This document shows, one piece after another, positions 1 to 4,016 of a stretch of DNA of 64,000 bases. Under the pieces are notes generated by a model. It was not told where the DNA came from. It saw nothing but the letters and a program-made list of their open reading frames with translations, and did no database searches. How positions within the stretch are numbered: position 1 is the first letter of the stretch; each line of letters starts with the position of its first letter. The translations under genes were made by a program, and so were the position numbers. Origin of the DNA: Thermoproteota archaeon (GTDB taxonomy: Archaea > Thermoproteota > Thermoprotei_A > EX4484-217-1); the NCBI GenBank assembly GCA_029258915.1, contig JAPDJU010000012.1, positions 53,149-117,148 on the forward strand. Direction: 5' to 3'.

Positions 1-627
1 AAGAAAGCTATTGAAGCAGGTGCTGACGGGATCTCTGCTATAAACTCTTTTGGCCCAGTACTCGCTCTAGACCTAAGCACACCATTGCCAGACTATATGC
101 TTAAAGGACTACCTGTTATGGGTGGACCTGACGGTACAGGATGGCTTTCAGGATCAGCTCTAAAATACTTGGCCTTAAAAATAGTTTTTGACCTGTATAA
201 GGCTATGCCCAATGTTCCAATGTTAGGTGTTGGAGGTATTTCTACCGGGCGTGACGCTATGGAAATGATTATGGTAGGAGCTAATGCTGTTCAAGTATGT
301 ACAGCAGCGATACTTTACGGGCTAAACATATTTAGCAAAATAGTTAAACAGCTAAAGGCCCTTATGGAGAAAATGGGTTTCGATAGCATTAAAGAACTTA
401 GAGGATATACTCACAAAATATGGAAGAAAAGATATATTAGATATATTTCAACGCCTCCAAAATATTATCCTGAAAAATGTACTGGATGTAAGTTATGTGA
501 AATAAGCTGTCCATATGATGCAATAGTTGTTGTTAACGGTAAAGCAGTACTTTACAAGGACAAATGTTTTGGATGTGGAGTTTGTGTCACAAGATGTAGA
601 TTTGGAGCTCTAGAAATAGAATGGTAA
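1..627 (+). CDS. Dihydroorotate/dihydropyrimidine dehydrogenase-like flavoprotein with C-terminal 2x[4Fe-4S] domain (PreA-like), 5' truncated by the window
   Basis: Frame 1 is open from base 1 (KKAIEAGADGISAINSFGP). FMN barrel motifs G-x-SG, GVGGI and GANAVQVCTA. C-terminal CxxCxxCxxxCP and CxxCxxCxxxC ferredoxin motifs. Confidence 0.85.
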   Translation, partial: KKAIEAGADGISAINSFGPVLALDLSTPLPDYMLKGLPVMGGPDGTGWLSGSALKYLALKIVFDLYKAMPNVPMLGVGGISTGRDAMEMIMVGANAVQVCTAAILYGLNIFSKIVKQLKALMEKMGFDSIKELRGYTHKIWKKRYIRYISTPPKYYPEKCTGCKLCEISCPYDAIVVVNGKAVLYKDKCFGCGVCVTRCRFGALEIEW

Positions 628-710
628 AATAAATTATTTTTCTTTTAACCATAGTTCTTTTAAAAACCTTATTTATATTAAATAATATTTTAAAGTTCTA
701 GGTTTAGCCA

Positions 711-764
711 ATGAATAAACTATTATTGCCTGAAGGAACTAAAGTCTTACTCTTAGGTAATGAG
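711..764 (+). pseudogene. 5' remnant (18 codons) of an indolepyruvate:ferredoxin oxidoreductase alpha-subunit-like gene, cut by the IS
   Basis: ATG at 711 reads MNKLLLPEGTKVLLLGNE, matching the IorA-type N-terminus (...LLLGNEAIARG). It stops abruptly at the GC-rich IS end. Confidence 0.6.
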
Positions 765-912
765 GGTTCCTACCTACGTAGGCATTTATAGACCTACGTA
801 GATGTTCATCGCCCCTTGTCTTCCCTGTGCCCTCCTACGGAGGTCTACCTCCCTCGGCGAACATGGGTGCATCGAGCCTCATAGACCTCGCTGCTTCATC
901 AGTCTCAATACC
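765..912 (-). ncRNA. Candidate structured omega-RNA/end-derived RNA scaffold transcribed away from tnpB
   Basis: GC-rich non-coding tract with hairpins (CCTCC-TAC-GGAGG 831-843; palindrome CCTACGTAGG 773-782). The minus strand carries TGATGA/CGATGA box-C-like words. Minus-strand TATA (TTATATAG 943-936) lies about 25 nt upstream. Confidence 0.45.
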
Positions 913-935
913 TGAATGTTCAAATAAGCGTTGTT

Positions 936-945
936 CTATATAAGT
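936..945. promoter_or_regulatory. Probable bidirectional TATA box
   Basis: CTATATAAG lies about 20-27 nt upstream of ATG 964 on the plus strand and about 25 nt upstream of the GC-rich tract on the minus strand. Confidence 0.45.
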
Positions 946-963
946 ATTTTGGTGTTTAGAAGT

Positions 964-1116
964 ATGGGTATAATCCACGTTAAGATAGACGATAGGTTAG
1001 AGCTGGAGTTTAGAAAGAGAGTTCTAGAAGTCAAGGGGGTTAAGAAGAGGGCATTAACGGAGGCGGTCGAGGAGGCGATAAGGCTGTGGCTAGAAAAACA
1101 CAGAGGGAATACGTAG
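964..1116 (+). CDS. Small ribbon-helix-helix DNA-binding protein inside the IS
   Basis: MGIIHVKIDDRLELEFRK...ALTEAVEEAIRLWL: alternating beta strand followed by two helices. ATG 964 is preferred over TTG 931. Confidence 0.7.
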   Translation: MGIIHVKIDDRLELEFRKRVLEVKGVKKRALTEAVEEAIRLWLEKHRGNT

Positions 1117-2113
1117 CCGTAAATGGAAAGTTGCTGATTACGGACAAGGTAGCTGAAGGGAAGTTGCTACATGCTATGAGGCTGTTCAGAGATGCCGTTA
1201 AAATGGCTCACCACCTGATTAAGGTGAGGCTGGATTGGAATAATGCTGAGAGGAGGTTAACTTCATACATTTCTAATGCACATTATGCCCATTCGGCGTA
1301 GCAAAAGGCTAAACTATGGGGGAAGCGACCTTACCTGAGATTGAGGAAGAAGATTCTTTTCAGCGTCGGCAAAACGGCTGAAAAAGGAAATAGAAACATC
1401 AGGCTAATCCCGTCAGATAAGTGCTTCATTATTAGGATAAAGATCCCACATGCCGATGGAAAGCATGAATGGATTTATGCCAAAGCCATATTCGGTGAGA
1501 GGTACCTACCGCTACTAAAAGAATTATCTGGTGAGAATATCAGTTATGGAGACGAGATAGGGGAAGATTACAGAATCCACGTATATGTACCAGTTGAGTT
1601 GTACTGTAAGCATTTGGGCAAGAAGATAGAGAGGAGAGGTAGGTCTTCCCACATCGCTGGATTTGACTTGAACAGCGACAGGATAAATATGGTCATAATC
1701 AACGATAGTGGAGAGTTGCTGGACGTTAAGGTAAAACACTTCCCAGAGGTTACTCAACATGGCTTCCCCAAGGAGAAAGCTAGAGATATTAGGCTTAAAG
1801 CCCTGTCGGAGCTAATAGATTATGCATGCTATCATAATGTTGAGTATTTTGTATTTGAGAGATTAGGGAAGAGAAAGAAAAAGAAGACTAGTAACAGAAA
1901 TGTTAATAGAAAGCTAAGTAAGTTTCCTAAGAAGCAATTGCTTACTCATGCTAAGGTAATGGTAATGAAAAGGGTAAGAAGTTTTGCGAGGTAAACCCAG
2001 CGTACTCATCTCAAGATGCTGAATTAATAGCTAAAAAACTAAGACTCGATACTCATACAACATCAGCATACATACTAGCATATAGATACCTAAAGTCTAC
2101 AAACCCCTATTAA
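1086..2113 (+). pseudogene. tnpB: TnpB-like RuvC nuclease, disrupted by an in-frame TAG (1299-1301) and a frameshift near 1970-1990
   Basis: ORFs 1086-1301 and 1341-1994 are in the same frame. RuvC-I is GFDLNSDRINMVII and RuvC-II is VFERL. The shifted frame gives EVNPAYSS...LDTHTTSAYILA (RuvC-III), ending TAA 2111-2113. Confidence 0.85.
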
Positions 2114-2154
2114 TACCTATAAAAAATGAACAGTTACGCTAGGCCATACCAGCG

Positions 2155-2859
2155 GGGTTTAAAAATGGCAGAGATTTGAGGCTTAGACTACGATTATTGG
2201 TGCTAAGTTTTGGTCTGAGCATTCGAGGAAAAGAATAGAGAACACTCTTGGCATTGAAGCTTATAATAACTGCGGATTAGCTGAAGCTTGTGGACCTGAG
2301 ATTGCGGTTGAAACACCTGAACATAAGGGATTAATGCATGTTTGGCAGATCGCTTCTACATAGAAGTTATTGATCCTAAAACAGGTGAAAATGTTGATGA
2401 GAGAGGGAGGAGAACTAGTAATAACAACATTGCAGAGAGAAGCCATGCCCCTAATAAGATGTAGGACAGGCGATATAGTTAAACTGATAGTCTATGTTTG
2501 CGGCTTAAGACCGGGTCATCCTTTAATCTCCTGAATTAAGGGCAGAGTAGATGATATGGTTAAAGTTAAAGGTGTAGGATTATACCCTGAAAGCGTGGAA
2601 AGAATAGTTATGAAATATCATGAACTGTGACCTGACTATCTAATAATGTTAACAGGTTACGACAGAGTAAAAGTGCTTGCAGAGGCAAAGAAGAATATAA
2701 CGCAAAAGAGAATAAGTGGCATAGTGGAGGAAATTAGGAGAAAGTTAAAAAGAAGAAATATTCATTAGAATAAGTGTTAAAGTAGTTAAACAAGGTAAAA
2801 TAGACGAAATTAGAGGAGCAGGTAAGGTAAAAAGGATTCTAGACTTAAGGAAGTTATAA
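2155..2859 (+). pseudogene. paaK: Phenylacetate-CoA ligase, 3' half, with frameshifts and stops
   Basis: Pieced translation: IIGAKFWSEHSRKRIE..AYNNCGLAEACGP..YIEVIDPKTGE..GELVITTLQREAMPLIRCRTGD..KGRVDDMVKVKGV..GKVKRILDLRKL*. These are hallmark PaaK motifs. Confidence 0.85.
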
Positions 2860-2865
2860 TGCAAG

Positions 2866-3297
2866 GTGTTTTTCATGGCGAGAAGAAAATACGGATTATT
2901 AACTGAAGAACAATATGAAGTACTTAAACTTAGAATTCAAGGGCTTACACAAAAGAAAATAGCTGAAATACTTAAAACATCAAGGGAAAATGTTGCCGTA
3001 GTTGAGAGAAGAGCTAAAAGAAACATAAGGCTAGCTGAAGAAACACTAAAAGCGTACAAAGAACTCTTGGCTATAACTAAAGTTGAAATTAAGGAAGGAA
3101 CACACTTAGTTGACGTACCAAGGATAGTTATCAACGCAGCAGATAAGGTAGGTGTGAAATTAAGAGCTAACTTTACCCGAATATATGATGAAATAAGGTT
3201 TAAAGCAGGAGAATGTGTAAAAGGCACCCATGTGGTTAAACCTATAGTAATTCTCATATATAGAAACGGGGATGTTGAAGTTTTAAAATGCTATTAG
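2866..3297 (+). CDS. tfx: Tfx family DNA-binding protein
   Basis: LTEEQYEVLKLRIQGLTQKKIAEILKTSRENVAVVERRA HTH, followed by the typical Tfx C-terminal domain. Confidence 0.85.
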   Translation: MFFMARRKYGLLTEEQYEVLKLRIQGLTQKKIAEILKTSRENVAVVERRAKRNIRLAEETLKAYKELLAITKVEIKEGTHLVDVPRIVINAADKVGVKLRANFTRIYDEIRFKAGECVKGTHVVKPIVILIYRNGDVEVLKCY

Positions 3298-4016
3298 ATT
3301 TCTTCAGAGACACACCATCTTTTAAGCTTCAAAATCTTAGCTGCACCAGCGCATGTAACACCATAAAGTATGGTTTTTTCCTTGAACGGCATGATTTCAT
3401 GTAAGGTATCATTAACTATCATACTACCTGTCGCTAACACTATGTCTGCCCATGAAGAAACTTCGACATTTCTTAAATAGCTTTCCACCAAGATCCCGAA
3501 TTTTATTTTTCCAATATTCTTTTCACACATATCCGTAACTCTAACCTTAAAGTACTTAGACAGTGTTTTTACAAGAGCCGGTTGATACCCTATGATACCT
3601 ACTTTAGGTTTACCGTAAATCTGTCTAATATATTCTGCGAGTTTTTCAGCACATATCCATGGACCGCTGTTTCTACAGTGTCTCGTATTTTTAATTAAAC
3701 CTAAATACTTCATTACCGCGTTTAGTGAGGCTATAAATAATGCTCTTTCCTTATTTGATGTTAAACTTAGATTAATAATATCCCTTAGCCTACCATAGAA
3801 GTTCGAAGGTTCATCAGTAAAGGCTTGTCCTACATCATCTCTAAACACTGCTTCAACAAGGACTTCCTCTCCTCTAACGAGAGCAAACTCTTTATCTAAA
3901 AGTTTTCCTATAGCCTCTTCCTTACTTAAAGGCCTGATCTTAATTGCTATGTTTTCTTCTTCTAAACCATGCTTTCTAATTATTTCACCAAACGTTCTAC
4001 GTAAAACATTGAACAT
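3294..4016 (-). CDS. DUF364/Rossmann-like domain protein (putative metal/pterin binding)
   Basis: GQAFTD, ERALFIASLNAV, KVGIIGYQP, ADIVLATGSMIVNDT and YGVTCAG motifs. Confidence 0.75.
   Translation of the reverse strand: MFNVLRRTFGEIIRKHGLEEENIAIKIRPLSKEEAIGKLLDKEFALVRGEEVLVEAVFRDDVGQAFTDEPSNFYGRLRDIINLSLTSNKERALFIASLNAVMKYLGLIKNTRHCRNSGPWICAEKLAEYIRQIYGKPKVGIIGYQPALVKTLSKYFKVRVTDMCEKNIGKIKFGILVESYLRNVEVSSWADIVLATGSMIVNDTLHEIMPFKEKTILYGVTCAGAAKILKLKRWCVSEEI

Follow-up and report, generated by a model that had tools for sequence, protein, structure and literature searches.

Layout of the element and its insertion site

The window analysed here is a 64,000-nucleotide stretch of contig JAPDJU010000012.1 (positions 53,149 to 117,148, forward strand; assembly GCA_029258915.1) from an archaeon of the Thermoproteota. 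Near its left end lies an inserted element (window 764–2143) composed, from left to right, of a GC-rich tract, a TATA region, a small gene of the ribbon-helix-helix (RHH) type and a tnpB-like frame. Judged by comparison with related loci, it is probably a decayed, non-autonomous IS607-type transposon of the RHH/MazE-TnpB clade, whose guide RNA would be encoded by a separate gene upstream of, and antisense to, tnpB. A preliminary description of this DNA, made from the letters alone, had named the same features; all of them were present at the locus, and two of its coordinates were corrected (Table 1).

The left boundary was defined by relatives. Homology ended at window position 763 (query 1–763 for G004 and G002; query 710–763 for G001 and G003), so that the junction previously placed at 765 was accurate to within 1–2 nt. 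In four relatives, the sequence runs through the junction (caret) as ...GGTAATGA^AGCAATAGC, within an intact iorA, the indolepyruvate:ferredoxin oxidoreductase alpha gene. On the right-hand side, homology resumed at 2167, at a point 5.3 kb further on in G004 and G002, and an adjacent deletion has therefore taken the original right flank. The alignment of window 2145–2166 with the relatives' right flank started at the junction and was not significant (21 vs 17.4 ± 3.5). Comparison across the family placed the right end at ...GAACAGTTACGCTAGG(C), 2141–2144, only 28–31 nt after the tnpB stop and not at 2157, about 45 nt after it, as first proposed. The earlier remark that the space downstream of tnpB is too small for a normal omega-RNA was thereby strengthened.

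The tnpB-like frame carries two lesions: a TAG nonsense codon at 1299–1301, a position that codes for Tyr in its two closest homologs, L046 and L050, and the loss of one nucleotide near 1972/1973. The window tnpB is dead, and of the genes of the element only the RNA gene and rhh look intact. This copy is a pseudogene relic, and its own function is possibly limited to the putative RNA gene.

Structured tract

The GC content was 0.51 at 775–924, compared with 0.25 in the flanking intergenic DNA, and a GC-rich tract occupied the same position in nearly every locus of the family. Folded as minus-strand RNA, 764–917 reached −53 kcal/mol (z −2.73; 1 of 200 shuffles as good), vs −42.2 kcal/mol (z −1.36; 18 of 200) as plus-strand RNA. 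Before any model was built, the fold was better as minus-strand RNA in 15 of 15 relatives. RNAalifold gave −31.3 kcal/mol for the minus strand and −23.7 for the plus strand in 15 close relatives, and the minus-strand mismatches of the terminal hairpin (772–803) comprised 19 G·U and 4 A·C.

A covariance model, R1, was built from a hand-curated minus-strand structure, a check that the preliminary description had proposed for 765–912. R1 scored 125.8 bits on the window (764–910, minus strand). Of 57 sources, 55 yielded the tract at E ≤ 0.001, each time on the strand opposite to tnpB and upstream of the small gene; with all loci oriented so that tnpB is on the plus strand, every full-length match at E ≤ 1e-3 was a minus-strand one in that position. 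Within the alignment of the 55 R1 matches, pairing was retained in 94.8% of cells vs 64.4% after shuffling, and none of 500 shuffles equalled the observed score. When the partner was slid by 1–3 columns, pairing fell to 39–47%. Compensatory changes occurred in 38 of 40 pairs. G·U outnumbered A·C by 272 to 38 (124 to 38 without four conserved U·G pairs), exceeding it in 50 of 55 sequences and falling below it in none. Three comparisons are independent of the fitted alignment: the 15 of 15 relatives mentioned above, a model-independent folding in which 55 of 55 tracts were more stable antisense to tnpB (by 14.4 kcal/mol on average), and the same comparison in fixed windows (52 of 57). These results support a conserved, RNA-like nature of the tract, which lies at the end opposite to the tnpB 3′ end, and a reading direction antisense to tnpB that leads outward over the left junction.

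The more familiar arrangement would be a guide RNA in sense orientation that overlaps the tnpB 3′ end and exits over the right end at 2143, with the tract acting as a transposase-binding left end or a 5′ leader. It would correspond to the canonical TnpB layout as given in the available text of Altae-Tran et al. (2023, PNAS; PMC10691335), and the plus strand indeed starts after ..GA^GG and ends ..CTAGG^, like an IS607 transposon-associated motif (TAM) and right end, with a small CCTA/TAGG hairpin at the right end. The strongly covarying structure is, however, located at the opposite end and on the opposite strand, and only the 28–31 nt mentioned above follow the stop. Conservation across the family stops 30–45 nt after tnpB. 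The canonical omega-RNA site (last 125 nt of tnpB plus 40 nt), folded in sense, was less stable than an internal control of equal GC content (−25.9 vs −33.1; 57 loci), and sense was the more stable strand of this 3′ region in just 12 of 57 loci. Moreover, the gene-less copies described below retain the upstream tract and a TATA box, not the tnpB 3′ end. We regard a canonical guide RNA as highly improbable here.

The tract RNA (764–917, minus strand; family alignment) also contains three (R)AUGA motifs that hardly vary, together with conserved GA dinucleotides. They may resemble k-turn or box C motifs of the kind bound by L7Ae in archaea. No Rfam family matched window 1–4000 at E ≤ 1 on either strand.

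Termini and likeness to IS607 elements

Read antisense to tnpB, the tract of the window ends ...GGTAGGAACCC^ and that of the intact paralog (L003) ends ...GGTGAACGG^. The canonical IS607 elements of the same genome end ...GGGAGGAACGG^ and ...GGCAGAACGG^, and the terminal motif GAACGG is common to the RHH-TnpB elements and the right ends of both canonical copies, L109 (G000:C10:22500-27500) and L111 (G000:C2:58200-63200). The comparison supports the view that the tract shares its 3′ end with IS607-type right ends, at whose terminal motif canonical guide RNAs stop. One of the two canonical elements was accompanied by a short RNA-like copy about 150 nt past its right end.

As described in the available text of Zedaveinyte et al. 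(10.1101/2023.11.20.567912), IS607 elements have a GG core at both junctions, a TGGG target/TAM and a scaffold ending in ...CGG. The preliminary description had noted that IS607 elements recombine at GG, and GG is present on the plus strand of the window element at 764–765 and 2142–2143. The two ends covary across the family: of 24 loci whose right-end-type terminus (RE′) finishes in CC, 22 have GGC at the opposite end, and of 16 finishing in GG, 13 have CCC (nine loci were unclassified and four lacked a 3′ end). For the GG subtype the core/TAM rule holds: a gene-less copy, L123, has the flanks aGGG^...GAAC^GG, and the congeners G005 and G006 both show aGGGt at the empty site.

The element contains no gene for the serine recombinase TnpA. 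Three serine-recombinase genes lie elsewhere in the genome, and the two examined, in L109 and L111, adjoin canonical zinc-finger tnpB genes. The RHH gene had been described as standing in place of a transposase; it does occupy the position of the transposase gene, but it is no substitute for a transposase. No Y1 transposase was found in the genome (99.7% completeness), which was one of the reasons for dropping the idea of a single-strand-hairpin (IS200/IS605) route.

Gene-less copies, empty sites and putative guides

R1 revealed copies without rhh or tnpB in the same genome at C4:36726-36907 (73 bits) and C7:33754-33905 (48 bits) and, with a weaker match, next to a canonical IS607 element. Each has a TATA box upstream in the RNA sense and the terminus GAACGG, and two also bear the other end of the element just upstream. 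Such copies are much like miniature inverted-repeat transposable elements. The C4 copy is flanked by GGG and GG (filled site ...gagaaaaGGG[253 nt]GGctgtc...), and its uninterrupted site, ...gagaacaGGGttgcc..., was present in both congeners named above. For the solo copy L125, the flanks were not found in the relatives and no empty site was identified; none was identified for the intact paralog either, as the relatives' contigs end too early. The insertion in iorA and the gene-less copy with an empty site in two congeners support, at the sequence level, an element that is or has been mobile.

The first 16 nt of the putative guide of the window (748–763) matched its own site alone at ≤ 1 mismatch in the genome. 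The 16-nt putative guides of five RNA copies gave no trans targets in the genome at that threshold, each matching only its own flank, as a transposon guide derived from the flank would show.

Solo copies could also be explained if the tract were either a nested element of unrelated origin or a structured small RNA in its own right (one with a k-turn, for example) that is often found beside these genes. Seven of the 13 strong R1 matches across the order had no adjacent tnpB-like match, and the invariant (R)AUGA motifs, which we take to resemble k-turn or box C motifs, would suit such an RNA. On the other hand, the tract has a fixed place and orientation beside the small gene in all of the approximately 50 loci with enough upstream sequence, its outer edge coincides with the insertion boundary, the solo copies also bear the other end of the element, and no Rfam family matched. 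We give this explanation only a very slight probability.

Table 1. Features of the window element and of the gene-less copies in the same genome. Positions refer to the window unless a locus is named; a dot denotes no assigned strand.
Feature	Position	Strand	Evidence or remark
iorA 5′ remnant (first ~17 codons; gene interrupted by the element)	711..763	+	Relatives with intact gene; NCBIfam IOR_alpha = 600 bits on partial open reading frame (ORF)
Putative guide segment, flank DNA that would be transcribed after the scaffold, 5′-UCAUUACCUAAGAGUAAGAC	744..763	-	Suggested by RNA orientation
Putative omega-RNA scaffold and IS607-type right end (RE′); ends ...GUAGGUAGGAACCC	764..917	-	R1, fold z, family covariation
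Scaffold terminal hairpin, 12 bp	772..803	-	Fold of tract; mismatches in relatives
Degenerate box resembling TATA (minus strand: CTTATTTGAA); the invariant GAUGA follows 27 nt later	919..928	-	Read from sequence; clear box at this place in L050, L040, L032, L003
TATA box CTATATAAG	936..944	.	20 nt before RHH ATG (964), plus strand; 43–44 nt upstream of GAUGA, minus strand
Intact small RHH-type gene, 50 aa; stop overlaps tnpB start	964..1116	+	ORF; relatives with weak RHH_3/RHH_6 matches below cut-offs
TnpB-like pseudogene, RHH/MazE-TnpB clade, without zinc finger	1086..2113	+	Stop 2111–2113; intact paralog similar in fold to Cas12f and TnpB
Short left-end-type terminus (LE′ in RNA sense): CCTA/TAGG hairpin, GAACAG motif, junction GG 2142–2143	2114..2143	.	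Family comparison
22 nt between element and resumed homology at 2167	2145..2166	.	Alignment to relatives' right flank not significant
Gene-less copy (two ends and RNA gene with TATA box), 253 nt	L123:1495-1747 (G000 C4)		R1 match
Gene-less copy	L125:~1400-1690 (G000 C7, upstream of window)		R1 match
Gene-less copy	L109:1408-1547 (G000 C10)		R1 match

Promoter region and the small DNA-binding protein

The preliminary description had placed the central TATA box (936–944) so that it could serve both strands, with the plus strand leading to a leaderless rhh. The distances given in Table 1 fit such a central promoter region, which would fire in both directions. In 37 of 53 loci across the family, a TATA-like octamer was located 36–47 nt upstream (RNA sense) of the GAUGA that is invariant near the 5′ end of the RNA structure; some loci have a second box at 26–31 nt. 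The two boxes are inverted copies of each other in L003, L030, L032, L037, L059 and L060; in several loci the inverted boxes, CTTATATA-N8-TATATAAG, each lie about 26–30 nt from the start of their own product. Inverted repeats in the promoter region were only modestly above shuffles (mean arm 6.36 vs 5.02). An arm of at least 7 was present at 21 of 53 loci, and several of the repeats consist of nothing but the pair of TATA boxes. In subgroups with an AbrB-type partner (L061, L062, L074 and others), a perfect inverted repeat, for example CTACAGAAA-N12-TTTCTGTAG, brackets a single TATA box; on sequence grounds it resembles an operator for a dimeric repressor.

A small ORF ending at the tnpB start was present in 62 of 68 loci and was either RHH-like or AbrB/MazE-like. 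The AbrB-type products matched Pfam MazE_antitoxin (PF04014) with 38.7 bits against a cut-off of 24.7, while matches of the RHH-type products to RHH_3 and RHH_6 were weak and below cut-offs. By analogy, the small protein most likely represses the shared promoter region. In the accessible part of their report, Moon et al. (10.64898/2026.09.24.754181) described Arc, an RHH protein, as a repressor of IS605-family promoters; there, as here, a transposon-encoded RHH protein beside tnpB is a plausible repressor of its own promoter. Their elements are bacterial IS605 elements with TnpA, whereas half of the present clade has an AbrB fold, and the repressor role is assigned here by analogy.

Altae-Tran et al. 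(PMC10691335), in the available text, rated the clade (branch RIIIr-4) as non-mobile and proposed a toxin-antitoxin system on the basis of an AlphaFold co-fold. In such a type II pair, the TnpB nuclease would be the toxin and the RHH/AbrB protein the antitoxin that binds it, the tract would be regulatory DNA or a leader, and there would be no transposon. The overlap of the small gene with the tnpB start, as in toxin-antitoxin operons, the match of the AbrB partners to MazE_antitoxin, the patchy distribution of the family and the inverted repeats that flank the promoter in some loci all agree with it. It does not explain the defined ends shared with IS607, the insertion into genes, the empty sites in congeners and the gene-less derivatives, and an operator of such an operon does not account for a 150-nt covarying structure on the opposite strand. 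Taken as a full explanation of the locus, it appears unlikely to us. As a statement about the small protein, it is compatible with repression: an RHH protein could repress the promoter and bind TnpB, and the RHH/AbrB protein could be a promoter repressor, a TnpB-binding antitoxin, or both.

Proposed mechanism

From this anatomy we infer that the omega-RNA would be the product of its own gene, situated at the opposite end of the element from the tnpB stop. Its transcription would start from a TATA region that either doubles as the rhh/abrB-tnpB operon promoter or adjoins it back to back, and would run antisense to tnpB, outward over a right-end-type terminus. Because transcription would cross the terminus outward, the ~20 nt of flank would be appended 3′ to a ~150-nt scaffold and serve as the guide. 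A scaffold followed by the guide is the order used by TnpB and Cas12. In the RNA sense, the layout would be LE′ - (tnpB← rhh←) - promoter(s) - omegaRNA→ RE′ ^ guide, the arrangement of an IS607 element whose protein genes are turned round and which has no serine transposase. The element may move with the help of an IS607 serine recombinase in trans, for which the three genes in the genome would be the candidates. The RNA would pair with the nuclease, and the complex would cut the empty site and so keep or spread the element, with a TAM of NGGG, or NGCC for the subtype of the window. The RHH/AbrB protein would repress the shared promoter region.

The comparative evidence supports this putative divergent-RNA model. 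The preliminary description had put forward the same architecture together with an RHH autoregulator; the conserved antisense structure, the TATA box upstream of it and the IS607-like 3′ end stood up in the comparison.

Several points weigh against our reading. The junction of the window subtype is CC/GCC in the RNA sense, not GG, and the uninterrupted target in the relatives is CT (plus strand, AG), which means that the window copy follows the IS607 core rule only loosely. The right ends of the canonical IS607 elements gave no R1 match; the likeness is confined to the last ~15 nt and was judged by eye. The subfamily of L016, L101, L104 and L108 was not matched by R1 either, and its tract was compared by eye only. 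The alignment of 55 sequences was fitted to a minus-strand model, which biases the pairing, covariation and G·U/A·C counts towards that strand. The TATA scan used ad hoc consensus words, and 16 of 53 loci were without a score. RuvC-III may have a His where canonical TnpB has an Asp, and nuclease activity is therefore uncertain. Finally, the published census counts the RHH/MazE-TnpB clade as non-mobile, according to the available text of that paper (PMC10691335).

A bolder version of the favoured model can be offered tentatively, and we would not call it probable. The clade would be a mobile offshoot of IS607 in which the guide RNA is an independent divergent gene, controlled together with the nuclease by one small DNA-binding protein at a shared promoter, and the gene-less copies would scatter guide genes that one intact nuclease could use in trans. 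Such a clade would form a natural intermediate between an omega-RNA tied to its transposon and the RNA loci of Cas12 systems, which stand free and supply many guides.

Relation to known systems

The RHH/AbrB-TnpB gene pair is already known from Altae-Tran et al. (PMC10691335), and the putative upstream antisense guide-RNA gene is the new part, not described for this family. According to the available text, those loci also have an archaeal TnpB-like gene directly after a small RHH or AbrB/MazE gene, in hyperthermophilic Thermoproteota and Euryarchaeota. The authors reported a long 3′ untranslated region in which a guide might be encoded, whereas the 3′ region here measures 30–45 nt and the conserved RNA-like structure is upstream and antisense. 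The other difference is that the module behaves like a transposon: its ends are of the IS607 type, it has inserted into a gene, and both empty sites and derivatives without genes occur. A literature search in a collection of openly accessible papers returned no account of a TnpB guide RNA lying upstream or antisense, and no further paper on RHH/MazE-TnpB.

With IS607 elements, as covered in the available text of Zedaveinyte et al. (10.1101/2023.11.20.567912) and represented in this genome by L109 and L111, the clade shares a core dinucleotide at both ends and in the empty target, a TAM-like NGGG at one junction and a scaffold ending in ...CGG at the other. The terminal GAACGG is also that of the canonical copies in the same genome. 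Unlike those elements, it lacks a serine transposase gene, has its protein genes inverted relative to the ends and the RNA, and would possess a promoter for the RNA instead of cutting the RNA from the tnpB transcript; in the subtype of the window, the core is CC and not GG in the RNA sense. A guide RNA that is a separate non-coding unit, apart from the 3′ end of the nuclease gene, is also found in IscB/IsrB omega-RNA and Cas12 trans-activating CRISPR RNA/CRISPR loci, as presented in the available text of PMC10691335. The IscB RNA is upstream, in sense and with a 5′ guide, whereas the RNA proposed here is antisense, with a 3′ guide and no repeat array.

To our knowledge, the guide RNA of all characterised TnpB systems is cut from the 3′ end of the tnpB transcript. 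If our model is true, a separate antisense RNA gene with its own promoter would uncouple the supply of guide from the nuclease mRNA, and this would explain why no downstream RNA fits in these loci. RHH/MazE-TnpB, published as an immobile toxin-antitoxin pair whose guide is 3′, would then be seen as a mobile element of the IS607 type. The model would also indicate the RNA, the approximate TAM and the promoter relevant to these small thermostable nucleases.

TnpB-like protein and its family

The intact paralog is located on contig C10 of the same genome, encodes 348 aa with 46% identity and has the same layout, one that about 55 independent loci share. The intact protein had 232 relatives at E ≤ 0.001 among 2571 candidates of the protein collection, and those with a named source were from hyperthermophilic archaea, Staphylothermus hellenicus DSM 12710 and Archaeoglobus profundus among them. 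The genome scan yielded 79 loci, with matches in 8 of 8 genomes of the window's order; the distribution of the family is patchy. Curated TnpB models were not reached (NCBIfam guided_TnpB, 30.3 bits against a cut-off of 100; TIGR01766, 31.7 against 32), and a Pfam search with fragments from the window and with the intact protein gave nothing above cut-offs. The protein alignment contained no CxxC pair of a C4 zinc finger between NPAYSS and RuvC-III.

The AlphaFold2 model of the intact paralog had a predicted local distance difference test (pLDDT) score of 84.8. Full-length Foldseek matches included AsCas12f (8j12_A; E 2.3e-10, TMq 0.60) and ISDra2 TnpB (8exa_A; E 2.3e-7), and the model predicts the WED-REC-RuvC fold of TnpB/Cas12f nucleases. 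D197, E261 and H325 were invariant and D323 near-invariant in 19 sequences (the window reads LDTHTTSAY), so that either H325 or D323 may occupy the catalytic position; for RHH/MazE-TnpB, the available text of Altae-Tran et al. (PMC10691335) gives a His for Asp in RuvC-III. All 120 homologs among the matches listed bore the precomputed label PF27229.1, which was absent from the Pfam search result of the intact protein. A curated Pfam family for this clade may therefore already exist.

Some minor observations concern the paralog and the surroundings of the window element. L003 and its 96%-identical counterpart from a related genome (L129/L030, G008:C2:9134-10517) match only within L003 1371–2753, and their right end and the last ~25 nt of tnpB differ, as if the terminus had been exchanged. 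In the window, the gene after the element (homology from 2167) is full of stops, and ~5.3 kb are missing compared with G004 and G002. In the congener G006, only ~209 nt separate the outer genes. Decay of the entire iorA-linked operon seems to be under way in this genus.

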